Shown here one piece after another: positions 3,107 through 36,894 of a stretch of DNA of 42,973 nt. The stretch is taken from the sequence record OZ035812.1. One strand, 5' to 3'. A program made the translations under genes and the position numbers. How positions within the stretch are numbered: the first letter of the stretch is position 1; each line of letters starts with the position of its first letter. Below the pieces are notes generated by a model. That model was not told the origin of the DNA. It saw nothing but the letters and a program-made list of their open reading frames with translations, and did no database searches. Source of the stretch: Kagunavirus LM08P1.

Positions 3107-3139
3107 CTGAATAGTACCCTATTATATTGGTGTCTGCAA
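3107..3139 (-). promoter_or_regulatory. sigma70-like promoter with palindromic operator-like core (family 1), minus-directed
   Basis: Minus strand reads TTGCAG-N17-TACTAT with TATAATAGGG inside spacer; core TGAATAG-N4-CTATT inverted repeat; sits 24 nt upstream of minus gene start 3083. Confidence 0.55.
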
Positions 3140-4691: not shown

Positions 4692-4720
4692 GAGGCCCCA
4701 TAATGGGGCCTTAGATTTTT
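4692..4720 (+). terminator. intrinsic terminator hairpin
   Basis: GGCCCCA-TAA-TGGGGCC hairpin followed by T-rich run TTAGATTTTT. Confidence 0.55.
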
Positions 4721-5062: not shown

Positions 5063-5095
5063 ACTGAATAGTACCCTATTATATCGGGGCATGTA
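5063..5095 (-). promoter_or_regulatory. sigma70-like promoter with palindromic operator-like core (family 1), minus-directed
   Basis: Minus strand reads TTACAT-N17-TACTAT with TATAATAGGG in spacer; nearly identical to elements at 3107, 14187, 36341, 37776. Confidence 0.55.
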
Positions 5096-5111
5096 AACTA
5101 TTTATTTACGT

Positions 5112-5162
5112 ATTCCAGTTATTCCACTCAATTGTAAATGTTGGAATAAACTATTCGAATAG
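5112..5162 (+). promoter_or_regulatory. cluster of GGAAT/ATTCC motifs and 12-bp palindrome CTATTCGAATAG immediately upstream of promoter
   Basis: ATTCC at 5112 and 5121, GGAAT at 5143, perfect palindrome CTATTCGAATAG 5151..5162 abutting the -35 hexamer at 5163. Confidence 0.35.
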
Positions 5163-5191
5163 TTGACTTTTCACTAAAAATGTGCTAAGCT
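5163..5191 (+). promoter_or_regulatory. sigma70-like promoter (TTGACT-N17-TAAGCT, extended -10 TG) driving structured RNA element A
   Basis: -35 TTGACT 5163..5168, 17-nt spacer, -10 TAAGCT 5186..5191 with TG two nt upstream; same hexamers and spacing at 36032..36060 while spacer sequence differs. Confidence 0.55.
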
Positions 5192-5197
5192 CCACCT

Positions 5198-5397
5198 GAG
5201 CTTGTGAAGTATGAACAAGCGACCGCGGCGCGGGCAGGTAACGGAGCGGGACGTAAGTCCTGAGTGTAGTTACGCTGACGCGTTCGGAAGGGCCATACTC
5301 TATTGCTTGTGTAAAAAGTAACTGGTTTACTGAGATTACGCCGTTTCTATGTTTAAATGATAAGGACTAGCGCCCCGCTTTATGGCGGGGCTTTACT
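5198..5397 (+). ncRNA. candidate structured noncoding RNA / leader element, copy A (unidentified family)
   Basis: About 200 nt between promoter and terminator hairpin (5371..5391 + T-run); shares conserved blocks with copy B (36067..36300) with hairpin-preserving substitutions; no reading frame conserved between copies. Confidence 0.5.
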
Positions 5398-5415
5398 TAT
5401 CGAGAAAGGAGAAAC

Positions 5416-12156: not shown

Positions 12157-12184
12157 CTAAGGCCCCTTTCGGGGCCTTTTTCTT
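12157..12184. terminator. bidirectional intrinsic terminator
   Basis: AAGGCCCC-TTTC-GGGGCCTT hairpin with A-run upstream and T-run downstream; separates + major tail gene from - island; almost identical to terminator at 24206. Confidence 0.65.
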
Positions 12185-14186: not shown

Positions 14187-14220
14187 GTGAATAGTACCCT
14201 ATTATATTGGGGTGTGCAAG
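14187..14220 (-). promoter_or_regulatory. sigma70-like promoter with palindromic operator-like core (family 1), minus-directed
   Basis: Minus strand reads TTGCAC-N17-TACTAT with TATAATAGGG in spacer; 31 of 33 positions identical to plus-strand element at 36341..36373. Confidence 0.55.
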
Positions 14221-22238: not shown

Positions 22239-24203
22239 ATGTCAAGCGGATGCGGTGACGTTTTAAGCCTGGCGGATTTACAAACCGCCAAGAAACACCA
22301 GATTTTTGAGGCTGAAGTAATTACCGGCAAATCCGGCGGAGTTGCTGGCGGCACTAATATCGACTACGCAACTAACCCGGTTACGCTGCAAACGCAGAAG
22401 ACAATGCCTGCTATTCTGCGCGACATCGGCTTTCAGCCAGCATCATTCGACTTCACTTCTGGGGGGACACTCACCACAGACGACCGAAACAAGGCTGTGT
22501 TGTGGCCTTTGGCCGATGGTGGTGATGGGGATTGGTATTACTGGGAGGGCGCGCTGCCGAAGGTTATCCCAGCGGCATCAACTCCGGCGTCTACTGGTGG
22601 TGTTGCCGAAGGTGCCTGGAGGCCTGTGGGGGATATTACGTTACGCAGAGAACTAGCTAGTACTAACGGAGCCCAGGCTATTGGTACCTTATCGGGCGGT
22701 AGCGTACAAGATGAATTAACTAAGCTACCCTTAACGTATATCGCCCAGCAAAAATCACCTATTACCATCACAGTAGGGCCTTCTGGTGATTTTTCAACTA
22801 TCAATGACGCGATAACTAGCGTGGCGAAGTATCAGTATGTCCTCGCTTCGGGTAATACTGGTATCCGTATCACCCTGTTAAGCGGTTTTTTGATGGAAGA
22901 ACAGGTCATTGTCGACTTTTTAAATCTTTCGTTTATAGAAATATACTCAACGTCGGTTGTGCATATATCTCGCGCGGCGCTTACAACCGCGGTTGAGGGG
23001 TACTACCCTGCCTTTTGCGCAAAAAATTCAGCGGTCCTACCAAAGATAAACGCCTCTTTTGATATGGGTTGGACCTCCGGGGCTCAAGACCAATCTGTGG
23101 CATTTCTGGCCTACGGAGCTGGGTCCGCAATATCTATTGCAAGCGGTAAAGGATGTATTAGGAGTTACGGGTTCGGCATTCTAGCGTCTAATGGCGCTAT
23201 GTTCAGCGCCGACGGTACTGTGTGGGACGATTGCGCCGGTGATGGGGTTTCTGTGTACGCAGGAGGCTCAGGCTCCGCTAAAAACGCAACGGCAAACCGT
23301 TGCTACAATGGGTTCGTTGCGAATGGTGGCGTACTTGATGCCACAAGCTCTGTTGCGAAAGGAACCAGAAGTGCTGGCTTTGCGGCCAGAAAATCTGGGG
23401 TGCTGAACGCTGAATTTGCGGATGCGCAAAACGGGGTAACGTACGGCTTCTATTCCGCGGTAAGTTCGATGCTAAACGCTACCCGTGGTAACTGTAGCGG
23501 TTGCCGGTTTGGCATATCTGCGCAGAGAAGCTCAAAAGTCGCAGCGGAAGAGGTTACAGCTGATAATTGCCTGGAAACGAATATATCAGCCCGCAGGTAC
23601 TCAGAGATTGAGGCACAAAGCTGTCATGCCGTAAACACCACTACGACTCCGCTCTACTGTATTCGCGCCAACTATTCAGGGTCGGTTGTTGTTGAGTCCG
23701 GAACTATAGGCGGGGCTTGCACACATAATATTTGCCGGGCGACCACCAACGCAGAGATACAAGCTACCGATACTAAGATGTCAGGGGCGATAGGTACATC
23801 GATTGCGGTCTTCGTTGACGAGTCGTCAAACTTTAACGGACGCAGGATGAACCTGAACCATTCAACCTCGGAGGGGACCGCAGTTCATGTTCTCCGGGGG
23901 AGCACTGCGGACATTAGCGATAGTACTATAGTTGCGGGTAATAACTATGGGGTGGTGTCCCAGTATTGCGCTAACGTAGCTGCGGATAACGCGAAAGTGA
24001 ACGGCTCTTCGGATTATAGTGTATACGCTACCGACGGCGGGAAAATATCAGTAACTAACAGTAATGTCAGGCGCGACAACTCGACAGACCAAAATACGGA
24101 CATTGTAATATCTCGTGGTGGTATTATTTCGGCATTTGGTGCATTAGGCGGCGTAAACACAACAGTTAACGCTGTATCTGAAAAAGGCATAATCTTCAAA
24201 TAA
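22239..24203 (+). CDS. tailspike / receptor-binding protein with probable beta-helix (possible depolymerase)
   Basis: 654 aa, last gene of tail module; G/S/N/A-rich repetitive segments typical of right-handed beta-helix proteins; function inferred. Confidence 0.5.
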   Translation: MSSGCGDVLSLADLQTAKKHQIFEAEVITGKSGGVAGGTNIDYATNPVTLQTQKTMPAILRDIGFQPASFDFTSGGTLTTDDRNKAVLWPLADGGDGDWYYWEGALPKVIPAASTPASTGGVAEGAWRPVGDITLRRELASTNGAQAIGTLSGGSVQDELTKLPLTYIAQQKSPITITVGPSGDFSTINDAITSVAKYQYVLASGNTGIRITLLSGFLMEEQVIVDFLNLSFIEIYSTSVVHISRAALTTAVEGYYPAFCAKNSAVLPKINASFDMGWTSGAQDQSVAFLAYGAGSAISIASGKGCIRSYGFGILASNGAMFSADGTVWDDCAGDGVSVYAGGSGSAKNATANRCYNGFVANGGVLDATSSVAKGTRSAGFAARKSGVLNAEFADAQNGVTYGFYSAVSSMLNATRGNCSGCRFGISAQRSSKVAAEEVTADNCLETNISARRYSEIEAQSCHAVNTTTTPLYCIRANYSGSVVVESGTIGGACTHNICRATTNAEIQATDTKMSGAIGTSIAVFVDESSNFNGRRMNLNHSTSEGTAVHVLRGSTADISDSTIVAGNNYGVVSQYCANVAADNAKVNGSSDYSVYATDGGKISVTNSNVRRDNSTDQNTDIVISRGGIISAFGALGGVNTTVNAVSEKGIIFK

Positions 24204-24205
24204 AA

Positions 24206-24232
24206 CTAAGGCCCCATTTGGGGCCTTTTCTC
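24206..24232. terminator. bidirectional intrinsic terminator
   Basis: AAGGCCCC-ATTT-GGGGCCTT hairpin with T-run; lies between convergent tail (+) and replication (-) blocks. Confidence 0.65.
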
Positions 24233-24369
24233 TACTCTTCTGATAACTTCTCAAGTACAAACGCCAGTTGTGCGTTAGCGGCATCTCTTTGCTGCCGTAG
24301 GCGTAGAACCTCCTCCTCAAGTTCCTTGATACGTTTTTGCAATGCCGGAATCGGGGCTATGATGTTCAT
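24232..24369 (-). CDS. small hypothetical protein (45 aa, predicted helical)
   Basis: Found manually; ATG 24369 overlaps helicase stop (ATGA) with AGGAG upstream; sequence MNIIAPIPALQKRIKELEEEVLRLRQQ... Confidence 0.3.
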   Translation of the reverse strand: MNIIAPIPALQKRIKELEEEVLRLRQQRDAANAQLAFVLEKLSEE

Positions 24370-25790
24370 TTCTTACTCCTTCTCTTCATATAATTAAGTA
24401 GTTCATCCTGTACAGACCTTTTCTCGTCTGTACGCGCGGCGACAACTTCATCAAGAGTATCTCTGGCTATTATTTGATAAATGAATACAGACCGTTTGTA
24501 CCCAGACTGCATCTGCCTTACTGGGCCTATACGCTCGATAACCTGCAAATAATGTTCCAGGTTCCATCCCTGACTCATAAATGCCATGTGATGCCCGCCG
24601 TGTTGTAGCGACAGCCCGTGACCCGCGGAGGCTGGGTGTATCAGGAGCATAGGTATCTCCCCTCGGTTCCACGCTTCCATCTGCTTATTACCCTTCGCAC
24701 CTTTGGCAAACGCCTGTGCCTGCGGGAATCGCTTAAGGATGCGCTCCAGTTCGTGCTTGAACTGATAGGCTACCAGCAACGGTGCGCCCTGTAATTCCTC
24801 AACAATCGACTCCAGCGCATCCAGTTTCGTGTCGTGCACTTTCTCCCAGTCTTTCGTTGCCTCACCGTCTGGCCCCGACACATATACGGCACCGGAGGCA
24901 ATCTGCAAACACTTTGACGTCTTTGCCGCCGCGTTAGCCGCTTCAACTTCTCCGCTCTCCAGTTCCGCGAATAACTTCTCCTCCATATCGATGTACGCCT
25001 GACGCGCCTTCTTCGGCAGGTCGATTTCAACCGGAACAATAATCGGCGCTTCACAACCAAACCACTCGGCGGGGTCGATAGTCAGGCTGATGTCTTTCAT
25101 CTTCTGATGAATCTCATTATCAGCGCCAGGGCGCGCATGATACTCCCGCGCCATCGCCGACTTACCTTTCTGTACCGAGTTAAACCAGCGGTCGGTGAAT
25201 GCGGTGTATGATGAGCCAAGGCGCTCGCCTGCGTCGATAAACCAGTTCTGGCCCCACAAGTCTTTGAGGCCGTTTGGCGACGGTGTACCAGTCAGGTTGA
25301 TAAAACGCTTAACCTTTCCGAACGCCACTTTACTTAGCGCCTTCGCCCTCTTGCTACCGCCAGACCGGCTACGGAATGATTTAAGCTTCGTGCTTTCATC
25401 GGCAACAATAACAGTAAAAGGCCAGTCGTCTTTGCCATAGTAGTCAATCAGCCACTCGATAACTTCGTAGTTTGTACACACCACGTTAGCGTCAGACTCC
25501 AGCGCCGCGATGCGGCGCTTCTCTGAACCTGTCGCATCGACGACGCGCAGACAAGGGAATTGCCATTTCTCTTGCTCTGCGGGCCACGTACCTGATGCAA
25601 CGCGCAACGGGGCGAGGATTAACACGCGGTCCCCTTCGGCAAGCTGCCCATTACGGAACAGGCGGTTTAAAACCCACATAGTAGAGGAGGTTTTACCCCC
25701 TCCCATGCCGCACCAGATATTACAGCGCGGATGCTGTAGCATGAACGAAGTCATGAGCTTCTGGTATTCGCGCCTTTGAAACTTACTCAT
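24366..25790 (-). CDS. ATP-dependent helicase (SF2, DEAD/SNF2-like)
   Basis: 474 aa; Walker A-like CGMGGGKTSS, DExx-like VIVADEST; C-terminal helicase-like region. Confidence 0.7.
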   Translation of the reverse strand: MSKFQRREYQKLMTSFMLQHPRCNIWCGMGGGKTSSTMWVLNRLFRNGQLAEGDRVLILAPLRVASGTWPAEQEKWQFPCLRVVDATGSEKRRIAALESDANVVCTNYEVIEWLIDYYGKDDWPFTVIVADESTKLKSFRSRSGGSKRAKALSKVAFGKVKRFINLTGTPSPNGLKDLWGQNWFIDAGERLGSSYTAFTDRWFNSVQKGKSAMAREYHARPGADNEIHQKMKDISLTIDPAEWFGCEAPIIVPVEIDLPKKARQAYIDMEEKLFAELESGEVEAANAAAKTSKCLQIASGAVYVSGPDGEATKDWEKVHDTKLDALESIVEELQGAPLLVAYQFKHELERILKRFPQAQAFAKGAKGNKQMEAWNRGEIPMLLIHPASAGHGLSLQHGGHHMAFMSQGWNLEHYLQVIERIGPVRQMQSGYKRSVFIYQIIARDTLDEVVAARTDEKRSVQDELLNYMKRRSKK

Positions 25791-25978
25791 TTCGCCACCA
25801 GAACTAACTCTTTACGCCCGAACGCCGTAACGTTACCAGTTACATCTTCGATAACCAGTTTACCGTTCGACTCTACGTACACCGTATCAACGGCAACAGG
25901 GCGACGGGTCTTAACATTGAAAATCATGTCGCCCGGTACGATGTCACGTGCTGGTTTGCGGTCGTATTCGTGTTTCAT
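25787..25978 (-). CDS. hypothetical protein
   Basis: 63 aa; RBS AAGGAA; stop overlaps helicase start (ATGA). Confidence 0.45.
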   Translation of the reverse strand: MKHEYDRKPARDIVPGDMIFNVKTRRPVAVDTVYVESNGKLVIEDVTGNVTAFGRKELVLVAK

Positions 25979-26017
25979 TTCTCAATTCCTTATAGTTAAG
26001 GCCCCGAAGGGCCTGTA

Positions 26018-26272
26018 TTAGTTAGATAATTCGGCTTGAACTTGCTTAATAAGTTCTCCAGCCGTTGTGAAGTCTACGGACAGCCGTTTAGCTACGTCTT
26101 CCGCAAGCACTTTGCGGCCAACCGACCCGAAACCCAGGATACGGTTTACTTCCGAAACCTTCATATACCATGAGTAATTAACTGATGCCCCTGTGTACTT
26201 ACAGATTCGAACAGATGAATCGATTGAACCCATAATCATGGTATTTACTGACAGTTGAAGTTCGATAGCCAT
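26018..26272 (-). CDS. hypothetical protein
   Basis: 84 aa; RBS AAGGAA; preceded by strong minus-strand promoter 26307..26335. Confidence 0.5.
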   Translation of the reverse strand: MAIELQLSVNTMIMGSIDSSVRICKYTGASVNYSWYMKVSEVNRILGFGSVGRKVLAEDVAKRLSVDFTTAGELIKQVQAELSN

Positions 26273-26273
26273 T

Positions 26274-26588
26274 TTATAATTCCTTATATTGTTGGGGTAT
26301 GTGCTTACTATAATAGTCTGCTATTAGGGTGTCAATCTGTTTTATCGAACCAACGACAAAAACATTCGCGCCACGTTTACGCATCCGCTCGTGCTCGCGT
26401 AACTGGTGTGGGTCTGGCTTCGTGCTTTCATCTTTCTTAACCTCAACGAACCAGATGATGCCGCCGGGGAGGATTACCAACAGGTCGGGCGCTCCGTTTC
26501 GGCCCTCATACACCATCTTACGAACGAGGCCCCCCAGGGCCTCGAATCGGTCTTTCGCGTATTTCTGTACGCGGCCCTCTTTAGTCAT
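26274..26588 (-). CDS. VRR-NUC domain nuclease
   Basis: ORF frame to 26603 (TTG); ATG 26588 in ATGA overlap with upstream small ORF; PD-(D/E)xK-type motif ...PDLLVIL...VEVKK... recalled as VRR-NUC. Confidence 0.6.
   Translation of the reverse strand: MTKEGRVQKYAKDRFEALGGLVRKMVYEGRNGAPDLLVILPGGIIWFVEVKKDESTKPDPHQLREHERMRKRGANVFVVGSIKQIDTLIADYYSKHIPQQYKEL
26307..26335 (-). promoter_or_regulatory. sigma70 promoter (TTGACA-N17-TATAGT) with palindromic core (family 2), minus-directed
   Basis: Minus strand reads TTGACA ccctaatagcagactat TATAGT; lies inside 3' end of VRR-NUC coding sequence, about 28 nt upstream of start of 26018..26272. Confidence 0.55.
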
Positions 26589-26737
26589 GGGCGTAGAACC
26601 CAAGTAAGGAAAGCCCCTCCTAGAACGGCAACACCGACAAACTTAAAGAACAGGCCATAACAGAACATCGTGGCTATTCCCGCCCCGAGTAACAGTGCAA
26701 GCATGGTTACTATTGTCCAAAATACAAACATTGTCAT
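26585..26737 (-). CDS. small hydrophobic protein (50 aa)
   Basis: Manual ORF; ATG 26737 with RBS GAGGGGTG; stop overlaps VRR-NUC ATG (ATGA); two hydrophobic stretches. Confidence 0.35.
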   Translation of the reverse strand: MTMFVFWTIVTMLALLLGAGIATMFCYGLFFKFVGVAVLGGAFLTWVLRP

Positions 26738-26819
26738 AATACGCACCCCTCACGTTTCGTGTGCTCAATCCCGCAGCGCGGACAGATTCGACAGTCTTCT
26801 TCATAGAACCAGTAGATTT

Positions 26820-26951
26820 TCATTCCAGCACCCACAGATAAATTGCGATGAACATACCTAATACGGCTACAATCATGCCGTATTGGCCCTCGTGACAGTA
26901 GACACCGGCGGCAAATCCCGCCAGTACTGCGATAATCAGTTTACTTAGCAT
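26820..26951 (-). CDS. small hydrophobic protein (43 aa)
   Basis: Manual ORF; ATG 26951 overlapping polymerase stop; sequence MLSKLIIAVLAGFAAGVYCHEGQYGMIVAVLGMFIAIYLWVLE. Confidence 0.3.
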   Translation of the reverse strand: MLSKLIIAVLAGFAAGVYCHEGQYGMIVAVLGMFIAIYLWVLE

Positions 26952-29214
26952 AACGGTACACCTCTTCCCCAGCCCATGTTAACGGGAACCCTTCGGCCCA
27001 CTCAGGTAATGAGCATAGCAGGTCACCCATCTCTTTAACCGTGTACTCTGGCGTGTCTGGCGTTTCGGCAACACATTCGTCATGTACGTGGAGTACAATT
27101 GGGTAGCCCGCCGCCTCGACCGTCAGGAGTCCGTTAACCAGTAAATCACGGCACAACGCCTGGATGATGTTTTCACACAATTTTCCGCCGTGGGTGTACA
27201 AAGTTGTCCACTGGCGGGTGGTCTGATTTTCACCCTGATACTTAATGCGGACGTTAGTAGTAACGCGCCCATCCTCGTCAGTCTCTTTAGTGACGCTTAA
27301 GCCTATGCCAGGGTAGGACATGATGCGCCCAGACGGCAGTTCCACGCACAACCACCAACCCGGAACCGGATTACCGTGGTTGTCTTTTTCTTTGGTACGC
27401 CAGATGCGGATGGCTCTGTCGCCGTTAAGGCGTACTCGGGCCCCTGCCCAAAACTCTCGTCCCGGATTTCTGATGGCGGCTATCACCGAATCCTTAAGGT
27501 CATTCCAGAATTTCACTGTTTCCGGATGGGCTTCCCGCCACATGCGCTTAATGGCGTCACAGGTGCGCCAGACTTCTTTAGGCAGCACATAAGAGGCCCG
27601 TTCATCTTTTTTACCAGGCTTTGGCGGGCGTTTAGCCTCCTGAATTCTGGCCCATTCGTAGCCACGGGCGGTAGCCGCCCAAATGTGGTCGGGGAACGTG
27701 CCCCGCATTGTCTCTGTCATTTTAAAGAGGTCCAGCCCGTAAGTTTTAGCCATAGTCATAAAAGCCCCTACGCCCCCCTCGTAGCCGAGGCCGAGTTCGC
27801 AACATTTCCCGACCTGACGTAGGTCCTTACGGGTGGCTTTTAGTTCTACGGGATCCATGCCAAACATCTTGCCCGCGGTGGCGCAATAAATATCAATCCC
27901 TGCGCGGAAGGTCTCAAGCGCGGATGTCTCCCCCGCGGTCCAGGCCAACCCGCGCCCTTCTACGTTTGAGTAGTCGGCAACGAGCAACTTATTACCTTTT
28001 TCCGGGATGATGCAACTGCGAACAGTCGAGGCTGTCAGCTTGGACACATCGAAACGGCGATGCGCCCGGCCCTTTAAAAGCAAATTGATGCCAAATGATA
28101 GCGGGTTAAGCCTGCGGTTCCAGTCTTCGTCGGACTCCCACGGCTGGCGCACAAGTTTCTTTTCCTCGTTAGTCGGGTCGTCGTGGTAGTACCCGCGCGA
28201 CAGGTTCTGCGGTTGGAACCCTTTACCCGCAAATCGTAAAGTGCGCTTTGCCCCACCGTACTGGATGCAACCGCGGCGGCGGCCGTCTTTGGACCGTCCT
28301 AGCAGGAGCGGTTTGTATTTTGTCGACGCCGTGGAGGCCGCGCCGAGGCGCATCTCAATGATTGTGCGCGCATCGTCAGGTAAGTCGTCGTCCTCTAGCA
28401 AACCTTCGAGCGTTGCTTTCTGTGCATTATAGATATTGTAGGCCGGTGCCAGCTCCCGAAGGATTGGCAGGAAGTCTTTACCCGTTAGCTTGCCGCCAAA
28501 TTTAGCCCTGGCCTCGTTTTTTAGCTCTTGCTTGTGGCGTTCAACTGCTGCTACCGCCGCCTCAGCAAGAGCCGCATCAACAAAGAAGCCTCGGTCGTTG
28601 ATTAACTGGTCAAGTTCAAGTACACGGTCCTCGAAATCGGAGTTACCCCAACGTGGCAGCTTATGGAAGACTTCACGCATCGCTGTGATGTCGCTCACGG
28701 CATACTTGATGAACAGGGCCCACTCGTCAGGGTGAGTTTCTGCGGTGTAGCGGCGGATTTTGTAGTTCTTCGGCGTCGGTTTAGAGAAACGCTTAATCAG
28801 CGCCTTGCCGCGTTTATCTTTTGCATTGTCGGCGGATACGCCCAGCACTTCGCACAATGCGTCAAGTGACCCCGGCAGCGCGTGACGAAACGCCCAAATC
28901 ATCGTATCAATGGTGTTGCTTACCGGAATATCAAAGTCCCAGCAGTGCTTCATGACGAGCCTGTCGAACATTGAGCCGTTGTGCCACACCATCTTAATAC
29001 GACTGTTTGGCTTAACCAGGCGGCGCAAGGCGCGGTGCAAATCGCCCGGCATGTCGCTGCCGTCGGTGCAGTCCCATACCTGCACAGGCTCGTCGTCAAA
29101 AGCATATGCGCAGATGAGCACTTCGGTAGTTGGGTGTTCTGCGTAAGCGTAGGAACCGACTTTCTTCAAATCGGCTTCGGAGAAGGTTTCAAAGTCTAAG
29201 AACAGATAACTCAT
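26941..29214 (-). CDS. DNA polymerase I-type (family A) with N-terminal 3'-5' exonuclease domain
   Basis: 757 aa; N-terminal DnaQ-like Exo I motif FLDFETFS; polymerase motif A-like DYSNVEGR and motif C-like VLHVHDE. Confidence 0.9.
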   Translation of the reverse strand: MSYLFLDFETFSEADLKKVGSYAYAEHPTTEVLICAYAFDDEPVQVWDCTDGSDMPGDLHRALRRLVKPNSRIKMVWHNGSMFDRLVMKHCWDFDIPVSNTIDTMIWAFRHALPGSLDALCEVLGVSADNAKDKRGKALIKRFSKPTPKNYKIRRYTAETHPDEWALFIKYAVSDITAMREVFHKLPRWGNSDFEDRVLELDQLINDRGFFVDAALAEAAVAAVERHKQELKNEARAKFGGKLTGKDFLPILRELAPAYNIYNAQKATLEGLLEDDDLPDDARTIIEMRLGAASTASTKYKPLLLGRSKDGRRRGCIQYGGAKRTLRFAGKGFQPQNLSRGYYHDDPTNEEKKLVRQPWESDEDWNRRLNPLSFGINLLLKGRAHRRFDVSKLTASTVRSCIIPEKGNKLLVADYSNVEGRGLAWTAGETSALETFRAGIDIYCATAGKMFGMDPVELKATRKDLRQVGKCCELGLGYEGGVGAFMTMAKTYGLDLFKMTETMRGTFPDHIWAATARGYEWARIQEAKRPPKPGKKDERASYVLPKEVWRTCDAIKRMWREAHPETVKFWNDLKDSVIAAIRNPGREFWAGARVRLNGDRAIRIWRTKEKDNHGNPVPGWWLCVELPSGRIMSYPGIGLSVTKETDEDGRVTTNVRIKYQGENQTTRQWTTLYTHGGKLCENIIQALCRDLLVNGLLTVEAAGYPIVLHVHDECVAETPDTPEYTVKEMGDLLCSLPEWAEGFPLTWAGEEVYRYAK

Positions 29215-29228
29215 TATTTTGACCCTTA

Positions 29229-29252
29229 GTAAAAAGGCCCAATAAAGGGCCT
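29229..29252 (-). terminator. intrinsic terminator / attenuator hairpin between DUF2815-like gene and polymerase
   Basis: On minus strand AGGCCC-TTTATT-GGGCCT followed by TTTTT, upstream of polymerase RBS. Confidence 0.4.
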
Positions 29253-29272
29253 TAATTAAACAGATTCAGATA

Positions 29273-29905
29273 TTAACCACGGCGACGACGTTCGCGGCGC
29301 GGTGCTTCATCTTCTTCGTCGTCTTCCAGGTCGTCGGTGCTCGCTACTACACTGGAGCCGCCGAAGCGTTTACCTTCGCCCATATACTTGATGCCGAGGA
29401 TGGTAGCGCACAGGTTTTTCCAATCTTTGTGCCACCATAATTCTACAGATACGTTTGCGATACATCCGCTATATACCTGCTCGCCTTCTATTTCTTTCCC
29501 GTCGATGTTGAAATCAGGCTCGGTTTGTTTTTCACCTTTAGCCGATGTCATAATCACCGGTTGGCGGTTGTTTGTAGCGCGGAAATACAGACCTTCTTCA
29601 AAATCCTCAATCGGATTATCTCGCATTGCCAGGTCACGGACGCAGCATTTGTCTGCGTGGTGGTCTACACCGTAGTTGGCCTTCATCCATTTCTCGGCAG
29701 CAGCGGCCCCGATTGCATCTGTTACAACTTCCAACGCGGTGTCGTAAAGCGCATCAATTTGAGGATGGTCAGGCTGCATAAGAACAGTAACCTGATACTT
29801 ACCCTTAATCAGTTTACCGGTTTTCTTGTCCTCAGAGTCGGCGGCACGTTCAAATACGTTAACCCAGGCGGTGTTTACTTTACGCAGATTCAGTTTAATA
29901 CCCAT
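29273..29905 (-). CDS. DUF2815-like protein (putative ssDNA-binding protein)
   Basis: 210 aa; acidic then basic C-terminal tail; synteny with DUF2800-like nuclease and family A polymerase, which is recalled as a common phage replication module. Confidence 0.5.
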   Translation of the reverse strand: MGIKLNLRKVNTAWVNVFERAADSEDKKTGKLIKGKYQVTVLMQPDHPQIDALYDTALEVVTDAIGAAAAEKWMKANYGVDHHADKCCVRDLAMRDNPIEDFEEGLYFRATNNRQPVIMTSAKGEKQTEPDFNIDGKEIEGEQVYSGCIANVSVELWWHKDWKNLCATILGIKYMGEGKRFGGSSVVASTDDLEDDEEDEAPRRERRRRG

Positions 29906-29958
29906 CTTGATTTCTCGCTTTTAAGTTTACTCCGGGAACTGCCCGGCCAGTGATTAGA

Positions 29959-29988
29959 AATATAATAGCTAACTATTCAGGTGTCAAC
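29959..29988 (-). promoter_or_regulatory. sigma70 promoter (TTGACA-N17-TATATT) with palindromic core (family 2), minus-directed
   Basis: Minus strand reads TTGACA cctgaatagttagctat TATATT; core TGAATAG-N4-CTATT; upstream of start 29905. Confidence 0.55.
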
Positions 29989-30235
29989 CCTTCCAGCCAG
30001 TTATTTTCTCAACTATCTCAATATACTTGTTGGGCCATTTCATGTTGTTTATGAATCGAAGCGCCTGTGTCTTCCACGATTTATCGCTCAGGATAGCTTC
30101 GATGTCGCGAGTTTGTGTTATACATACCGTAATACACATTAAGATAAATGTTGGTAGCGTTAGTGGCATCATAAGAACCCAGAAAACAATACACGCTATA
30201 AGCCCACCAAAAATCCTGAACGTTTTACGAATCAT
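29984..30235 (-). CDS. small membrane protein (two predicted TM helices)
   Basis: ORF frame to 30265 (GTG); ATG 30235 with AGGAGG 7 nt upstream and ATGA overlap with upstream nuclease gene. Confidence 0.5.
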   Translation of the reverse strand: MIRKTFRIFGGLIACIVFWVLMMPLTLPTFILMCITVCITQTRDIEAILSDKSWKTQALRFINNMKWPNKYIEIVEKITGWKG

Positions 30236-31473
30236 TCCAAATCCTCCTCTGTTACCTGATTCCACTCAGGACGTTTGTCGTCTGCCGTTGCGACGCATGG
30301 CGTGCCAGGCTTACGGGTAATAAAGTCTTTCAGTTCATCTTCCGACACAACTTTAACCGCTTCGGTCGGCGTCATGAGCACTTCTTTAGTCAGCTTGTCG
30401 CCGTAGAGTTCTGCCACTTTCTCCGCGTCTTTCCACGCGCGATTACCCGGGCGACCCTCAACCAGCTTGTACCCCGGAACTTTCTTACCGGAATGCAACG
30501 CGGCGGCCATAGCTTTCTCAACCTTGTCGATGTGCTGGCGCAATAACGGCAACTTCTCATACTCAGCTACGAGTTGCTCAGGGGTCAGTTCCAGTGCAAA
30601 GTCGTCTTCCAGTTCTTCCGCCAGTGCAGAGTTAACGGTTTTTGTACGCGCGGCGCACTGTTCAGAGAACCGGCACCACTGACACCCATCTACCGACGGT
30701 CTGAAGTCCGACGCTTTCAGGTTCTTCTTTCCACGGAAATAGGCGTCAAGCGCTAACAATGCACGTTTCTGCGCGAACTTAGCGAACAGTTCCAGACCTT
30801 CAACCGAGATGTCCCACTCGGACGCACCGCCAGCATACGGCTGGAAGATAACAAGACGAACAACTGTGATGTTATAACGTCTCCTGAGTCGGCGGTAAAC
30901 ACCGAGAGCGTAAAGCATTAGCTGCTTGTTTTCTTTCGCTTCGACACGATGCCGTCCCGTTTTAAGGTCGCCAATAATGAGCATGTGCTCGTCAGTGTTT
31001 GCCAGTTCCTGAACGGCAACAAGGTCGGCGGTGCCGAACGTCTCAATGCCTTCGTAGCCCGGATGCAATACCTCAGTAAGATTGACGCGCCTTTCCAGCT
31101 TGGCGTAAGTCGCTACATCGATAATCGCTTTGCAGTAATCGGTGTACTTGCGCACCTGCTCAATCATATCCGTCGTAATCAGTACCGCACCTTTCATCGG
31201 GCTTATTAGCGCCTTAATCTGGCCTTTACCTTCATCCAGCACGTAAGCACCGACTTCACGCTCTAATGGCAACGCAGTACCGCGTATATAGGCGTTGAGA
31301 TGTACCTCAGCTATGGTGTGACACGCGGTCCCTATAACGGCGGATTTACCCGAAGTGTTAGGAATATCTTTTTCACAGGCCAGTGACGCCGCGCATGACA
31401 GCCACTTTTTAGCGCCTGACGGTGACAGTAAGGCGTGTACATCATTATTGCCGCCTCGTTCTTTTAGTTTCAT
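30232..31473 (-). CDS. PD-(D/E)XK Cas4-like exonuclease (DUF2800-like) with C-terminal Cys cluster
   Basis: ORF frame to 31494; ATG 31473 with RBS GGGTGGGAG; C-terminal CQWCRFSEQC cysteine cluster typical of Cas4/AddB-type Fe-S nucleases; synteny with DUF2815-like gene and polymerase. Confidence 0.6.
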   Translation of the reverse strand: MKLKERGGNNDVHALLSPSGAKKWLSCAASLACEKDIPNTSGKSAVIGTACHTIAEVHLNAYIRGTALPLEREVGAYVLDEGKGQIKALISPMKGAVLITTDMIEQVRKYTDYCKAIIDVATYAKLERRVNLTEVLHPGYEGIETFGTADLVAVQELANTDEHMLIIGDLKTGRHRVEAKENKQLMLYALGVYRRLRRRYNITVVRLVIFQPYAGGASEWDISVEGLELFAKFAQKRALLALDAYFRGKKNLKASDFRPSVDGCQWCRFSEQCAARTKTVNSALAEELEDDFALELTPEQLVAEYEKLPLLRQHIDKVEKAMAAALHSGKKVPGYKLVEGRPGNRAWKDAEKVAELYGDKLTKEVLMTPTEAVKVVSEDELKDFITRKPGTPCVATADDKRPEWNQVTEEDLE

Positions 31474-31767
31474 GCTCTTAAACTCCCACCCCATTTAACT
31501 TTACGCGTTTTGCGCTTGTAGGCGCACGTGTCACCGCTACGGTTGAATATAATCAGCCAAGTCGAGTTGCTTACTCGAAAAGGCTGGTGACGTTTAATAA
31601 AGATAAGTCGCGCTTTACGGTTCGTCATTCTTCTACCCTCTCCACCCAAGCATCGTCAAAAGTATCAAAATCAAGATTATCGTATGCTGCGTATGCGTCA
31701 TCTACATCCAGGTATCGGCTGTGCTCTGTAGCCACGCCGTTAGTGTAAGTAAATATCGCCCAGTAAA

Positions 31768-32040
31768 TCATGCTCTGCTCTCCCACTGGTCAATTAAATG
31801 TCTTGTCTTATAGTCACAGTGCATGGCCCAGCTGTACATCGACTCAAAGACATAAAAGTCAGGTTTGGCGAATGTCGTGCGCTTAATCTGTGACACGTGT
31901 CGGCCTATATCTTTAGGCCGAGGTACTTTGCCTAAGTACGCCATCTCTTCCATCTGGTGCGCACCGGACGGCGCACGTAACAGCCATAACACCTCTGTGT
32001 TGTCCCGCCTGTCTACGGCTCGGTAGAGTTGGTAAATCAT
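31768..32040 (-). CDS. hypothetical protein
   Basis: ORF frame to 32067 (GTG); ATG 32040 with RBS GAGGGTAAA, ATGA overlap with upstream gene. Confidence 0.45.
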   Translation of the reverse strand: MIYQLYRAVDRRDNTEVLWLLRAPSGAHQMEEMAYLGKVPRPKDIGRHVSQIKRTTFAKPDFYVFESMYSWAMHCDYKTRHLIDQWESRA

Positions 32041-32240
32041 TTCTTTACCCTCACAGAATCCATCCACGCGAAAACGTCATCCATAGAAAAATCACCGTCG
32101 AAAACTTTTTGTGTTTTATCCGACTTTTGTACATACGTAGGGCGTTTATTATCTACCGCGTGGAAGCATACGAAGTTATCCGTTTCTTCTATAACCCGCC
32201 CTGAAATCATAAGACCACTTTTCTTAGCTAAAATAGCCAT
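32037..32240 (-). CDS. hypothetical protein
   Basis: 67 aa; RBS GAGGGTCGG. Confidence 0.45.
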   Translation of the reverse strand: MAILAKKSGLMISGRVIEETDNFVCFHAVDNKRPTYVQKSDKTQKVFDGDFSMDDVFAWMDSVRVKK

Positions 32241-32295
32241 ATTTCCGACCCTCAGTATGGTGCCCTCACGTATGAGGGCACCATAAGTTAAGTAG

Positions 32296-32784
32296 TTATT
32301 CTTCTTCGAAATACTTGTTCTTGATTGCCGTCAGGCGTTCCAGGTATTCGGCCAGGTCTTCGTCTTTAATCGCGGCAATCTTCATCTTCTTACCGGTGAA
32401 CTCTTCCAGCAGTTCATCGGAATCATCGCACGCGGCATCGCTCGGACCTTCATTAATCGCATCGTCGATAGCCTGAATCTGATCACGAAGAGACTGGTAA
32501 TCGACTTCTTCTTTCTCTTCTTGCGGCTCTGGCGTTGGCTCCTCTACTTTAGGTTTACGCGGCTTGCGTTTCGGCTTCTCTTCTTCTGCCGGTTTAGTGT
32601 CGACGAGGTCTTCACCTTCTACCGTGATTTCTTTTGTCGCTTCTTTCGCAACAACATCACGAACACTATCTGCGATGTTTGCATCTGCCTTAAGTTCATA
32701 CACAGGTTTTTTCGCGCTATTCGCAGCAATCAGTTCATGCGCAACTACGAAACGTTCCAGTAATTTTAAGAATTGGTCTAACAT
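32296..32784 (-). CDS. highly acidic hypothetical protein (first gene of minus-strand early operon)
   Basis: 162 aa, very high Asp/Glu content with a central KPKRKPRKPK basic patch; RBS GAGGAGAG; immediately downstream of promoter 32816..32845. Confidence 0.55.
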   Translation of the reverse strand: MLDQFLKLLERFVVAHELIAANSAKKPVYELKADANIADSVRDVVAKEATKEITVEGEDLVDTKPAEEEKPKRKPRKPKVEEPTPEPQEEKEEVDYQSLRDQIQAIDDAINEGPSDAACDDSDELLEEFTGKKMKIAAIKDEDLAEYLERLTAIKNKYFEEE

Positions 32785-32815
32785 TTGTTTCTCTCCTCTC
32801 GTTTGGTATGGGCTA

Positions 32816-32845
32816 ACTATAATAGCGAACTATTCATGTTGTCAA
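32816..32845 (-). promoter_or_regulatory. sigma70 promoter (TTGACA-N18-TATAGT) with palindromic core (family 2), minus-directed
   Basis: Minus strand reads TTGACA acatgaatagttcgctat TATAGT; core TGAATAG-N4-CTATT; divergent from HTH regulator gene. Confidence 0.55.
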
Positions 32846-32861
32846 TGGGCTTTCCTAAAAT

Positions 32862-32890
32862 AATTAATATGGTACTATTCACATATAAAC
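32862..32890 (+). promoter_or_regulatory. candidate plus-directed promoter/operator upstream of HTH regulator gene
   Basis: TAATATGG-TACTATTCA resembles family-1 core (TACTAT -10) but -35 is weak; 20 nt upstream of RBS AAGGAG of 32910..33125. Confidence 0.35.
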
Positions 32891-32909
32891 TAACTAAGGA
32901 GTAACTGAC

Positions 32910-33125
32910 ATGCAACCATCTGAACTAGGCATCCGCGTAGAACAACGCCGCAAAGAACTAGGCATCTCTCAGCGCCGTCTGGCGGTTTTGGCTGGCGTTT
33001 CCCAGGGCGCGATTAACCAGCTGGCACTCGGCGTAACTCAGGACGTCCGCCCGGCGACGCTGTTTAAACTGGCGGAAGTGCTGGAAGTAGACGCCAAGTG
33101 GCTGGCGTTCGGTGAAGGGGCTTAA
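32910..33125 (+). CDS. XRE-family helix-turn-helix transcriptional regulator (Cro/CI-like)
   Basis: 71 aa; classic HTH segment ISQRRLAVLAGVSQGAINQLALG; lone plus-strand gene between two minus-strand operons. Confidence 0.8.
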   Translation: MQPSELGIRVEQRRKELGISQRRLAVLAGVSQGAINQLALGVTQDVRPATLFKLAEVLEVDAKWLAFGEGA

Positions 33126-33140
33126 CGCCCCTTTCTTTTT
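33117..33140 (+). terminator. intrinsic terminator
   Basis: GGGGC-TTAAC-GCCCC hairpin followed by TTTCTTTTT between convergent genes. Confidence 0.5.
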
Positions 33141-33142
33141 AC

Positions 33143-35410
33143 CTATTCCAAATCCTCCGCTGTCACCACCAGCATTTCATTCGGTTCGTATATTGTCTTC
33201 GGAATCTTGTTATCCGTTATCCTGGTGTTAAGCCGGTAGCGGCCAGGTATTATCTGATTGTTTTCGTCAGTCCCCGGAACAAGATACCCGGCCTCAACCA
33301 TTTTCTTAATCTTCCCGCGTTCTATGGCTTCTTTGGAGTTAAACGCCTTTGCGTTGGGGTCTGACTGAGCGAGCTTATTCGCTGCGGCCACCGTGATACC
33401 TTCATTGCCGTTGTAGGTTCCTTCTGCCAGTTCAAACGCTGCCAGTATCGTGGCTTCCGAACTGTTGACGGCGTTCTCTACGGTTTTACGTACGTTTTCT
33501 TTACCTTCCTTTGTCAGCCCTTCTTCCCGCTCTTTCTCCTCGTCAGTTTTGAACGGCTCGAAGCCCCACGGCATCAGTACAAGCGCCTTGTGCGGTTCAG
33601 GCAGGTCGAGGTTTACGATTGTGCCGTATTCCTCTGTGCTACCCAGGAACTCAACCGCGCGATACTCTTTCGGCGGCGGGGCTTCACGGAACTGTACTGA
33701 CTCCAACACCATACCAACCGTCTTCTGTTGAGGCCCGTGCTTAAATTTAGAGTGGTATACGTTTATCTGGCGGTCGGTAGCGCGTTCGATTGTCAGCTCC
33801 ACGTCGACGCCCGCATACAGCGCCCCACTGCCACGGGCCTTCTTTCCACCCTTCGGCGTATGGTGGACAACGCCTACCGCAGCTTTAGTCGCATCACGTA
33901 CTTCTTTCAGGATGGCAATGACTTTACCCATGCCGATTGCCGTCGATGAACTGTTCTCGTCGAACTTATCAATCGTCAGGGCCAGCGTCTGGTTAAGGGT
34001 GTCGAATGCGACCATGCCAATTGGCTCGTCACCCGCAGTTTCACGCATTAACTTAATCAGGTTTTTCAGTTTTCCGACTTCGCCCATGTCGATAACATGT
34101 ACATAATCTTTACCTTCCTCGCCATATTTAGCCGCGAGTGCATCTATACGTGTGCGTGTAGCTGCGCCTCCCTCACCGTCGATATAGAAATGGTGGCAAC
34201 GCTGGGTATCCGCCCCGGCAAACCGGTATCCGGCGGCGCTCAGGTACATCATCCCCAGCGTATAGAACGATTTGTACGTGCCGGATTCCCCAACAATATC
34301 CCAGATACAATCTGACGGCATGTACCCCTCAACGACGAAATCAGCCTTTACCGGTTCCAGTAACTCGTCCTCCTCTGAGCCATCATCGTCTTCCAGGTCG
34401 TCGAGGCTGCATGAGACAGATTCACGCGCGCCCCAGCCGATAGCCTCGGCCACTTCACTGAACGGCAACCCGGTCGCATCACACGCGTATTTCCACACCT
34501 CTTTCGGTGACATGCCTTCGGTTGCCGTAATGTCGGTGTCGTGAATCATGGTTACGTTCGGCGCTTCGTAGCCCTCGCGCGGGAAGCACAGCAGGAAGTC
34601 ATCCGGGCGCGGCGTCGGGTCACTGTAGTTCTCCGCGTGTTCTGGTGTGGCGGGCATCTTAAGGCCGCGCGGCGTCATGATGCCACCGTACTCAAACGCC
34701 AGTGCTTCAAACGCATCCGTAAACGCGGTGCGTAGTTCTTCCGGTATCTGGTAACCCGATGCACTGCTAACGTCAACGGCTGGTACACCTTCCAGTAACT
34801 CTTCCGGGTCAATCAGGTCGTTACGGCGCGACCAGATAACGGTGGAGCCAACCGGCGGCAGGTACATCGGTTGCGACAGAGTGAACCCGCTGCGGTCAGC
34901 GCCCATACCTTTGAAGAAGTGCTCCAGCAATCCGTGACGAACGCGGATGATGTCACCACCTTCAACCGGACGCCCCAGCGGCATGACGACGCGAAAGCGC
35001 GGGGACTCATCGGCATGTGATGCTGTGGTGTAGAGGCACATCGCCTGGCGGCTGCGTTTAACCAGTTGCACCGCTTCCTGATACTCTTCCGTCGTTGCGC
35101 TGTCGAAGTCCAGATACGCCAGTGACGATTTGCTTACAGACGCGTCACAGCGATAGAAGAAGCCTTTACGCGCTTGCTTAAAGTCACCGGTTTCCGGGTC
35201 TTTTACGGTGCTGTGCGTCGAGTCGCACGCGGCAGTGATATAGCCCGGTGCGGTCTTCGGATTAATTCCGTCTCGAACGGCATCGAGCGGCTGGAGTAGC
35301 TCTTTCAGGTCGCCCAGTGTCGCCGTGTGTGTTGTTCTGACGTTTATATCCTTTTTCTCCGCCCGCGCGTTGCGACGTGACCACGAGTAGGATAAAATTA
35401 CATCGGACAT
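33143..35410 (-). CDS. primase / replicative helicase-type protein (N-terminal primase-like region plus RecA-like ATPase domain)
   Basis: 755 aa; Walker A-like GESGTYKS within RecA/DnaB-like region; large N-terminal domain of primase-polymerase size; RBS AAGGAAA. Domain identities from memory. Confidence 0.6.
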   Translation of the reverse strand: MSDVILSYSWSRRNARAEKKDINVRTTHTATLGDLKELLQPLDAVRDGINPKTAPGYITAACDSTHSTVKDPETGDFKQARKGFFYRCDASVSKSSLAYLDFDSATTEEYQEAVQLVKRSRQAMCLYTTASHADESPRFRVVMPLGRPVEGGDIIRVRHGLLEHFFKGMGADRSGFTLSQPMYLPPVGSTVIWSRRNDLIDPEELLEGVPAVDVSSASGYQIPEELRTAFTDAFEALAFEYGGIMTPRGLKMPATPEHAENYSDPTPRPDDFLLCFPREGYEAPNVTMIHDTDITATEGMSPKEVWKYACDATGLPFSEVAEAIGWGARESVSCSLDDLEDDDGSEEDELLEPVKADFVVEGYMPSDCIWDIVGESGTYKSFYTLGMMYLSAAGYRFAGADTQRCHHFYIDGEGGAATRTRIDALAAKYGEEGKDYVHVIDMGEVGKLKNLIKLMRETAGDEPIGMVAFDTLNQTLALTIDKFDENSSSTAIGMGKVIAILKEVRDATKAAVGVVHHTPKGGKKARGSGALYAGVDVELTIERATDRQINVYHSKFKHGPQQKTVGMVLESVQFREAPPPKEYRAVEFLGSTEEYGTIVNLDLPEPHKALVLMPWGFEPFKTDEEKEREEGLTKEGKENVRKTVENAVNSSEATILAAFELAEGTYNGNEGITVAAANKLAQSDPNAKAFNSKEAIERGKIKKMVEAGYLVPGTDENNQIIPGRYRLNTRITDNKIPKTIYEPNEMLVVTAEDLE

Positions 35411-35468
35411 GTTGTATTTCCTTCAGCAAGTAATTTGGCCTCGGCGTTCACCGCGTCGGGGCTTTCTT

Positions 35469-35759
35469 TTATCTATTAGCCAGACATTCCATCAAATGCG
35501 CGTACTTACGATAATAATCTACGACAATCTCATCACCGAAATACTGATAAACGTACGCTAAGTGGTCAGAGACATCGATGGAAGCCGACATTGTGCTGAG
35601 TCTTCGGAGACTAATCAACTGTAATTCTTCTGTAACGCAAAACGGTGAATAAGAGTCCAGCTTACAAGAAACGTTAAAGCACAACGCATATTCGCCTTGC
35701 ACTAAATAAACCATATAAGCACTGTCATTTTCTTTATCGTGGAAAATTACACCTTTCAT
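35469..35759 (-). CDS. hypothetical protein
   Basis: 96 aa; ATGA overlap with upstream HTH gene. Confidence 0.45.
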   Translation of the reverse strand: MKGVIFHDKENDSAYMVYLVQGEYALCFNVSCKLDSYSPFCVTEELQLISLRRLSTMSASIDVSDHLAYVYQYFGDEIVVDYYRKYAHLMECLANR

Positions 35760-35926
35760 TTCACGTTCTCCTTAATCCACGCCTCAACTTTATTACGGTC
35801 AAATGTACCAGGTAAACGGCGACCCATTACTTTAACGCTGCAATCAGGAAACTTTCCACTCTTAATCCAGTTATTGATTGTCTGGCGGGTGACTCCGATT
35901 AATTCTGCAACTTCATTGATAGTCAT
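35756..35926 (-). CDS. small HTH DNA-binding protein (AlpA/excisionase-like fold, putative transcription regulator)
   Basis: ORF frame to 36016; ATG 35926 with RBS AGGAGA; HTH segment INEVAELIGVTRQTINNWIKSG. Confidence 0.6.
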   Translation of the reverse strand: MTINEVAELIGVTRQTINNWIKSGKFPDCSVKVMGRRLPGTFDRNKVEAWIKENVK

Positions 35927-35955
35927 TTCGCGCTCTCCTGTGTAAGATGTATCGA

Positions 35956-35984
35956 AGTATAAGGCGGTAACTTTGTAAAAGCAA
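35956..35984 (-). promoter_or_regulatory. candidate sigma70 promoter (TTGCTT-N17-TATACT), minus-directed
   Basis: Read on minus strand upstream of HTH gene start 35926. Confidence 0.4.
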
Positions 35985-36031
35985 CCAAAACTGAACACAA
36001 AGTTACTAAGATACAAAAGATGCTACTGGTA

Positions 36032-36060
36032 TTGACTTTTACTTAAAAATATGCTAAGCT
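36032..36060 (+). promoter_or_regulatory. sigma70-like promoter (TTGACT-N17-TAAGCT, extended -10 TG) driving structured RNA element B
   Basis: Hexamers identical to 5163..5191 with same spacing but diverged spacer. Confidence 0.55.
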
Positions 36061-36066
36061 TCACTG

Positions 36067-36300: not shown

Positions 36301-36340
36301 TAAGAAACGAAAGAATCACAACGGCAACGTAACTTTTCTC

Positions 36341-36373: not shown

Positions 36374-36394
36374 TTATAGAAACGAGACAGAGGA

Positions 36395-36846: not shown

Positions 36847-36894
36847 TTACCCGTTTATTTTAATAGTCAGCGCCGTTTATGTGGTGCATGCGTT

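Follow-up and report, generated by a model that had tools for sequence, protein, structure and literature searches.

Ten promoter-like sites in a 42,973-nucleotide stretch of Kagunavirus LM08P1 DNA (record OZ035812.1; this whole stretch is called the window below) carry copies of the palindrome AATAG-N4-CTATT, and the evidence assembled here makes it very likely that this palindrome is an operator, the binding site of a dimeric helix-turn-helix (HTH) protein encoded by the phage itself. The predicted binder, with reasonable confidence, is a 71-amino-acid (aa) XRE protein resembling Cro of phage 434, and on balance its dimer would repress the host-type sigma-70 promoters that the operator overlaps.

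The exact palindrome is present in 8 copies in the window, with 0.05 expected, and at most one copy was obtained in any of 300 dinucleotide shuffles, so that scanning against shuffled sequence, the check attached to the sequence-only reading in which ten recurrent elements had been noticed, bore out the enrichment. When up to one mismatch is tolerated there are 13 matches against 1.15 expected, and the 18-mer ATAATAGGGTACTATTCA with up to three mismatches gives 8 matches against 0.02 expected, a number reached in 0 of 100 shuffles. An unbiased enumeration of every 5-mer palindrome with gaps of 0-8 ranked AATAG-N4-CTATT at the top in the window and also in Bas73 (7 copies) and EC3-1 (8 copies), two Kagunavirus-type genomes that were compared together with the Jerseyvirus SE2, the Cornellvirus VSiP and four Cornellvirus contigs. 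All ten sites were found at the positions first given or within 1-2 bp of them, and consist of the 8 exact palindromes and two conserved imperfect copies. The operator core is 14 bp, extended to about 18 bp in the form T(G/A)AATAG-N4-CTATT(C/A)A. The wider-gapped AATAG-N6-CTATT, with 3 copies in the window, was judged a chance occurrence, being unconserved in the relatives and lying in non-promoter contexts.

The ten elements are predicted to be sigma-70-type (host) promoters facing their adjoining genes, as listed in Table 1. The hexamers are 16-18 bp apart at all ten, and every site (10/10) has a Shine-Dalgarno sequence and a same-strand start codon 27-53 nt past the -10, in agreement with the orientation proposed earlier. 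The hexamers likewise proved to be as first described, class A having TTGCA(C/G) or TTTACA, a spacer of 17-18 bp and TACTAT, and class B having TTGACA-N17/18 followed by TATAGT or TATATT. In an independent consensus scan of 24000-42973 the class B sites were the three best sigma-70 matches, each with 11/12, and P40445 scored 10/12; class A matches the consensus at about 7-9 of 12 positions, mostly below the scan threshold. The SE2 orthologue of P36357 has TTGACG in the position of TTGCAC. A TATAAT in the class A spacer was considered as the true -10 and rejected, since the sequence 17 bp upstream of it holds no conserved -35, and TTGCAC (TTGACG in SE2) sits 17-18 bp upstream of TACTAT.

Table 1. 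Promoter/operator sites of the window and the two candidate regulators; dyad centres are approximate and targets are predicted.
Feature	Positions	Strand	Hexamers or domain	18-mer (positions)	Dyad centre	Target or role
P3110, class A	3108-3139	-	TTGCAG-N17-TACTAT	ATAATAGGGTACTATTCA (3108-3125)	-12.5	94-aa open reading frame (ORF) 3083-2799, ending at bidirectional terminator 2774-2794
P5067, class A	5065-5097	-	TTTACA-N18-TACTAT	same as ATAATAGGGTACTATTCA (5065-5082)	-12.5	104-aa ORF 5025-4711; terminator 4692-4712
P14190, class A	14188-14219	-	TTGCAC-N17-TACTAT	same as ATAATAGGGTACTATTCA (14188-14205)	-12.5	14162-12183 including Metallophos nuclease gene; terminator 12159-12178
P26312, class B	26307-26335	-	TTGACA-N17-TATAGT	CTAATAGCAGACTATTAT (26310-26327)	-18.5	26272-24366 including SNF2 helicase gene
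P29964, class B	29959-29987	-	TTGACA-N17-TATATT	TGAATAGTTAGCTATTAT (29962-29979)	-18.5	genes of Gp2.5-like single-stranded DNA-binding protein and DNA polymerase
P32821, class B	32816-32845	-	TTGACA-N18-TATAGT	TGAATAGTTCGCTATTAT (32819-32836)	-18.5	32784 leftward including exonuclease gene; divergent from XRE gene
P32866, weak	32851-32881	+	TTTCCT-N16-TACTAT	TTAATATGGTACTATTCA (32864-32881), imperfect	-12.5	XRE gene
P36357, class A	36341-36372	+	TTGCAC-N17-TACTAT	ATAATAGGATACTATTCA	-12.5	small-gene block from 36395/36404
P37793, class A	37777-37808	+	TTGCAC-N17-TACTAT	ATAATAGACTACTATTCA	-12.5	37835 onward; block also holds holins (39128-39701) and endolysin (to 40164)
P40445, class C	40443-40478	+	TTGACT-N17-TATATT	TGACTAGTTGACTATTAC (40443-40460), degenerate	-33.5	40512 onward, toward terminase and structural genes
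Possible weak eleventh site	5156-5173	+	TTGACT -35	CGAATAG-ttga-CTTTTCA	on the -35, arranged as at 40445
XRE protein, 71 aa	32910-33125	+	HTH_3, 434-Cro-like; recognition helix VSQGAINQL			proposed repressor
HTH_17 protein, 56 aa	35756-35926	-	HTH_17 (E=3e-10)			rival regulator

With +1 set 7 nt past the -10, the dyad is centred at -12.5 in the class A sites and P32866, overlapping the -10 and the discriminator; at -18.5 in class B, overlapping the spacer and the upstream edge of the -10; and at -33.5 in P40445, where it overlaps the -35 and TTGACT falls inside the N4 and the right arm. The SE2 orthologue of P14190 has its palindrome at yet another offset. An inverted repeat overlapping the -10, as claimed in the sequence-only reading, is thus a property of class A only, the repeat of class B lying mostly in the spacer and that at 40445 being centred on the -35. 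Read along transcription, class A is ATAATAG-N4-CTATTCA and class B is TGAATAG-N4-CTATTAT, so that the "related set" of TTGACA sites is real and consists of the class A palindrome turned round; with full symmetry the element would read TGAATAG-N4-CTATTCA. One arm always holds a -10-like sequence (TATAAT/TATTAT or TACTAT). An element read by RNA polymerase should hold one register, whereas an independently bound operator need not, and the three registers together with both orientations relative to the hexamers mark the element as no fixed promoter part. Action of the palindrome at the RNA level was ruled out by its position upstream of the predicted start sites.

The same conclusion is drawn from selective constraint, for which orthologues of seven sites from 39 Kagunavirus genomes or contigs (26-35 distinct sequences per site) were compared in a gapped alignment. 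Mean per-column diversity was 0.009 in the 10 half-site positions, 0.022 in the 2+2 outer positions and 0.027 in the -35 hexamers, against 0.117 in the central N4, 0.164 in the spacer 5' of the element and 0.10-0.20 in the flanks. The arm located in the spacer, which has no sigma-70 function, is as invariant as the arm doubling as the -10. Invariant arms around a free centre are characteristic of contact by a dimeric DNA-binding protein and not by RNA polymerase, and the shared repeat behaves, as had been proposed, like the predicted operator of a single dimeric regulator. The similarity among sites is not due to recent duplication, since the N4 and the flanks differ among paralogous sites. 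A 42-nt class A cassette was found in 149 deposited phage genomes at 323 places, typically 2-3 per genome, with almost never an annotated feature beneath; all carriers are Guernseyvirinae-type phages of Escherichia, Salmonella, Raoultella, Klebsiella and Shigella. A scan of viral contigs for exact ATAATAGNNNNCTATTCA was uninformative, giving mostly single, chance-level matches in unrelated contigs.

Two phage proteins had been put forward as the regulator, the XRE protein and a small HTH_17 protein, and both are real HTH proteins; homology, gene position and the comparison across genera favour XRE. The XRE protein matches Pfam HTH_3 with E=2.3e-12. Its closest solved relative in a phmmer search is 434 Cro, also of 71 aa (E=5.4e-7 over residues 6-68), followed by 434 repressor (1e-5) and P22 C2 (7e-3). 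The operators of 434 are 14-bp sequences of the form ACAA(G/T)-N4-(A/C)TTGT, with the same 5-N4-5 geometry, in which Gln28 contacts the outermost adenine, and the glutamine aligned to Gln28 is kept in the XRE protein of all genera. P22 operators are 18-bp palindromes in which arms of 7 bp flank 4 central bp that are not contacted and differ from site to site. The XRE gene forms a transcription unit by itself, closed by a terminator at 33114-33134, and its start is flanked by the operators at 32819-32836 and 32864-32881, which are 45 bp apart, the latter on its own weak promoter, a typical autoregulatory layout. The corresponding gene in Bas73 (PQ850603.1, 34027-34239, + strand, 96% identity) is unannotated in the deposited record, which lists small minus-strand "hypothetical proteins" across that interval instead.

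Recognition helix and palindrome co-occur across the relatives. In all fetched loci, every lineage with the helix V[ST]Q[GS]xI[NTSG][QH] has the palindrome at most 400 bp upstream of the gene, and no such palindrome lies near the gene in about 30 loci with other helices. All 38-40 Kagunavirus loci, including an outlier with 80% XRE identity, combine the helix VSQGAINQL with the palindrome. The Cornellviruses have at the corresponding promoters an 18-bp palindrome of matching architecture, (A)TATTAG-N4-(G)TAATAT. Counted with the neutral detector AWTAS-N4-STAWT, half-site position 4 is A in 78/80 half-sites in Kagunavirus (both arms in 38/40 sites) and in 27/30 in Jerseyvirus (both arms in 12/15), and is T in 14/18 in Cornellvirus, where A in both arms occurs in 0/9 sites, T in both arms in 5/9 and mixed arms in 4/9. 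Such a change in both arms would be expected if a dimer had altered its specificity.

Homologues in five prophage-like contigs (L176, L182, L192, L193 and L194) are the HTH domains of 229-230-aa CI-type repressors (HTH_3 with Peptidase_S24), whose genes are divergent from genes of 83-88-aa Cro-like proteins. In these contigs the interval between the two genes holds tandem (A/T)ATTAG-N4-CTAAT palindromes, 45-92 bp upstream from where the CI-like gene starts, and another pair, 0.7-2.4 kb distant, overlaps a TTGACA promoter; this is the canonical OR/OL picture. The helix of the Cro-like protein of L192, GVTQSAISHV, is close to that of the Cornellvirus XRE, GVTQSAISHL, and both go with ATATTAG half-sites. 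A scan of bacterial genomes for XRE relatives gave only 8 loci. One is a Jerseyvirus-like fragment, and the remainder, whose helices are unrelated and which lack the palindrome, serve as a weak negative control only. In a Taishania pollutisoli scaffold (Bacteroidota; NZ_JACVEL010000022.1) an XRE gene was seen with the helix VSQSLITHL, 51% identity to that of the window and Jerseyvirus-type operators; phage DNA contaminating the assembly is a more probable source than a prophage.

Some observations weigh against XRE as the binder or limit the support for it. The XRE of Jerseyvirus, at only about 51% identity, has a clearly different helix, VSQSLITHL, yet the AATAG-N4-CTATT core is retained; the Jerseyvirus palindrome differs mainly at outer positions, being a symmetric TAATAG where Kagunavirus has TGAATAG in one arm. 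Covariation of helix and operator is thus imperfect, and the step from Kagunavirus to Jerseyvirus is ambiguous. The Cornellvirus sites are less symmetric, with G as the inner base on both arms and the 4/9 mixed A/T sites, and the Kagunavirus loci form a single lineage, so that independent support comes from only about 8 lineages. HTH_17 and the AATAG form are also distributed alike, Kagunavirus and Jerseyvirus having both and Cornellvirus neither. The screen for DNA-binding domains took in about 30 of the about 70 ORFs of the window.

That the binder is instead the HTH_17 protein (excisionase/MerR-like), alone or together with XRE, appears unlikely. Proteins of the HTH_17 type usually bind direct repeats as monomers and not 5-N4-5 palindromes, and the nearest families of this one are excisionase-like and small-terminase-like, with no significant solved relative. 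Its recognition helix is identical in Bas73 and SE2. In EC3-1 the protein is 64% identical with a changed helix (VSTMTLNRW instead of VTRQTINNW), yet the 8 palindromes there are identical. Its distribution fits insofar as it is present in Kagunavirus and Jerseyvirus, which share AATAG-N4-CTATT, and absent in the Cornellviruses (VSiP and the four contigs), which lack the exact form, but in these same phages the corresponding promoters still bear a palindrome of that architecture. In the prophage-like loci this class of palindrome lies beside CI/Cro-type genes (HTH_17 was not searched for there). A MerR-type activator promoter was rejected on the spacers, which are 16-18 bp and not over-long (19-20 bp), and a MerR-type protein on the length of 56 aa, too short for the dimerisation helix. 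A study of the Jerseyvirus SGP-C named the HTH_17 protein "cI" and the XRE homologue "Cro" by HHpred only, with no operators identified (PMC8790156).

It is a little less probable still that there is no dedicated regulator and that the block is simply the preferred promoter of the group, read by host RNA polymerase (possibly phage-modified), or a cassette spread by recombination. The -10-like sequence in one arm and the identical 18-mer at 3108, 5065 and 14188 suit such an explanation, and papers based on PHIRE call the repeat a "phage promoter" (PMC9825357, PMC7203180). The second arm, however, is equally invariant, although sigma-70 requires no particular sequence at its position in the spacer or past the -10; the registers and orientations vary, the N4 and flanks diverge freely in paralogues and orthologues, and the position-4 change in Cornellvirus hits both arms. 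A transcription factor of the host as binder is very improbable. The 40445 site ACTAGTTGACTATTAC may bear a loose likeness to the E. coli trp operator ACTAGTTAACTAGTAC; Jerseyvirus and Cornellvirus both infect Salmonella and differ in half-sites, and Kagunavirus (E. coli) and Jerseyvirus (Salmonella) have a common core, so that the palindrome follows the phage lineage and not the host. It also tracks the phage HTH lineage into the prophage-like immunity regions.

The repeats have been published as promoters of a phage-encoded RNA polymerase. In Kagunavirus fBC-Eco01 seven PHIRE repeats, tgAATAGTa-ccTATTat-T, were so attributed (PMC9825357), and a similar number was given for VB_EcoS-Golestan (PMC7203180). 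The fBC-Eco01 consensus is the reverse complement of the class A 18-mer, hence the same repeat, for which palindrome, sigma-70 hexamers, registers and regulator are not noted in these papers. No RNA polymerase domain was found in any window ORF of at least 416 aa and none is annotated in relatives; these ORFs are, with the Bas73 annotation, DNA polymerase A, helicase-primase, SNF2 helicase, PD-(D/E)XK nuclease, terminase, portal and tail proteins. Instead of an asymmetric block of about 20 bp in fixed orientation, the element is a palindrome used in either orientation to transcription, and it comes with good, correctly spaced sigma-70 hexamers. Barring an unrecognised RNA polymerase, the explanation is already refuted for the window genome, and the published label is wrong for it.

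The window is nearly an entire phage genome. By megablast it belongs to the Kagunavirus group of the Guernseyvirinae ("Jersey-like" siphophages of E. coli); its first 20 kb are 96% identical to Kagunavirus LM08P2, and it is collinear with annotated phages such as Bas73. Structural genes are on the + strand, the replication block is on the - strand at about 24.3-35.9 kb, and small-gene blocks and lysis genes, all on the + strand, fill 36.4-43 kb. In this setting the XRE protein is proposed to act as follows. On infection, host RNA polymerase would start at all operator-bearing promoters, the near-consensus class B promoters ahead of the replication genes needing no activator. XRE would be made from its weak promoter, whose imperfect operator (with a TTAATAT arm) implies negative autoregulation, and would accumulate while limiting its own synthesis. 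A dimer centred at -12.5, -18.5 or -33.5 could only occlude RNA polymerase, and accumulating XRE would jointly turn down about ten units, comprising replication genes, small-gene blocks and opposite-strand accessory genes. P40445, which comes after the terminator of the lysis block and is kept in Bas73, EC3-1 and SE2, has the most degenerate operator, TGACTAG...CTATTAC, implying that transcription toward the terminase and structural genes would be repressed last or least. Binder, repression, hierarchy and timing are here all predictions from sequence.

The opposite-strand genes within the structural region belong to the set, as had been suggested: the three units 3083-2799, 5025-4711 and 14162-12183 each have their own promoter/operator and a terminator at the end. 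The label "early regulon" fared less well, being contradicted in part by the holin and endolysin genes behind P37793 and by the apparently operator-less promoter of the HTH_17/helicase-primase operon. No separate operator-bearing promoter for the holins and endolysin was seen behind P37793, and these lysis genes fit poorly with a simple "early shut-off". A sigma-70-like TTGCTT-N17-TATACT without the palindrome, read by eye at 35960-35992 (- strand), precedes the HTH_17/helicase-primase operon, which may be the sole unit of the replication module outside the operator network. The predicted regulon is most of the phage promoters rather than "early genes" specifically.

Further features were observed beside these units. 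The sites at 3108 and 14188 have about 30 bp of promoter sequence in common, and the first opposite-strand unit (3083-2799) is wholly absent from Bas73; the opposite-strand accessory units look like mobile promoter-plus-gene cassettes ("morons"), which would be gained or lost with their operator. Near-identical GC-rich hairpins, AAGGCCCC-loop-GGGGCCTT, at 2774-2794, 4692-4712, 12159-12178 and 24208-24227 are bidirectional terminator-like, stand at each boundary between + strand structural genes and opposite-strand units, and make up a second family of repeats, found again in SE2, VSiP and EC3-1. The promoter-like sequence of the possible eleventh site at 5156-5173, kept in Bas73 and EC3-1, heads an ORF-free region. 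This gap (5162-5415) and that at 36032-36340 (+) are paralogous, with 77% identity over about 200 nt, and each starts with a promoter-like TTGACT-N17-TAAGCT. RNA folding of 36068-36300 is unusually good (z=-3.6), and homologues in 19 Kagunavirus loci give a consensus structure of 20 pairs, 4 showing compensatory changes, with 6/400 cells non-canonical. The gaps had zero Rfam matches, as had the window as a whole; the gaps could be phage small RNAs, or origin-like DNA elements adjoining the helicase-primase operon. Past the endolysin stop (+) a terminator-like hairpin (40294-40322) is followed by a good predicted promoter, TTGACA-N17-GATACT (40328-40356, 10/12), and by about 65 nt closing in a strong terminator (40399-40430). 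This short unit (40294-40430) may be a small RNA, and holds AAUCACCUCCU, which resembles the anti-Shine-Dalgarno 3' end of 16S rRNA.

Among known systems the closest is phage 434 Cro/cI, with which the window has in common a 71-aa HTH_3 protein of detectable Cro homology, a 14-bp inverted repeat whose 5-bp arms enclose 4 variable bases as in OR/OL, operators overlapping core promoter elements, an operator on the regulator's own promoter and, as the expected role, the turning down of early transcription in lytic growth. Unlike 434, the window has no evident CI partner, Peptidase_S24 protein, integrase or bistable switch among the screened ORFs, nor is an S24 protein or integrase annotated in relatives; its operators are single and scattered over about ten promoters and not tandem triplets at two loci; they stand in three registers, and the half-site is AATAG and not ACAA(G/T). 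The divergent S24-type CI and tandem OR1-3 of a lambdoid immunity region, a layout that occurs in L176 and L192, were likewise not seen among the screened ORFs and single operators of the window. P22 C2/Cro is similar in its 18-bp palindrome with variable centre, P22 C2 being among the solved relatives of XRE, but XRE is less similar to it than to 434 Cro, and P22, a temperate phage, has tandem operators. Many dispersed motif copies through which one repressor controls many units are known from P1 C1, phiC31 c (conserved inverted repeats) and mycobacteriophage L5 gp71 ("stoperators"). Those are, however, prophage-maintenance repressors of temperate phages and of other protein families, the sites of P1 and L5 lack symmetry, and the stoperators of L5 work inside transcribed regions; the comparison does not claim the window system as a member.

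The repeat was thus already known and mis-assigned, and a Cro-type HTH protein with a palindromic operator is of a familiar kind. Unusual are the spread of single operators to about ten promoters in a phage considered virulent, the three registers and the series of variants among genera. No transcript mapping, start-site or RNA-sequencing data and no regulator biochemistry were found in the literature on Guernseyvirinae. Turbid plaques and immune "lysogens" have been reported for SGP-C (PMC8790156). An immunity circuit made up of XRE and the genome-wide operators, giving near-total shutdown, a repressed episome or carrier state and superinfection immunity, is an improbable proposition; if true, Guernseyvirinae, deemed strictly virulent and used in therapy and biocontrol, could persist in a repressed form, and operator cassettes before opposite-strand genes would bring newly acquired genes under global control.

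For the annotation of these phages, the wrong "phage-RNA polymerase promoters" would be replaced by a testable arrangement in which a single Cro-like protein would act through one operator on about ten host-type promoters. This would be a first, predicted transcription map for Kagunavirus and Jerseyvirus, including Bas70-76 of the BASEL collection and many candidates for therapy and biocontrol. The variants of the three genera, an AATAG carrying an outer G on one side, a symmetric TAATAG, and TATTAG, offer a compact system for the co-evolution of HTH specificity and operator, and a repressor that would silence most phage promoters bears on the safety assumption of obligate lysis in this subfamily.

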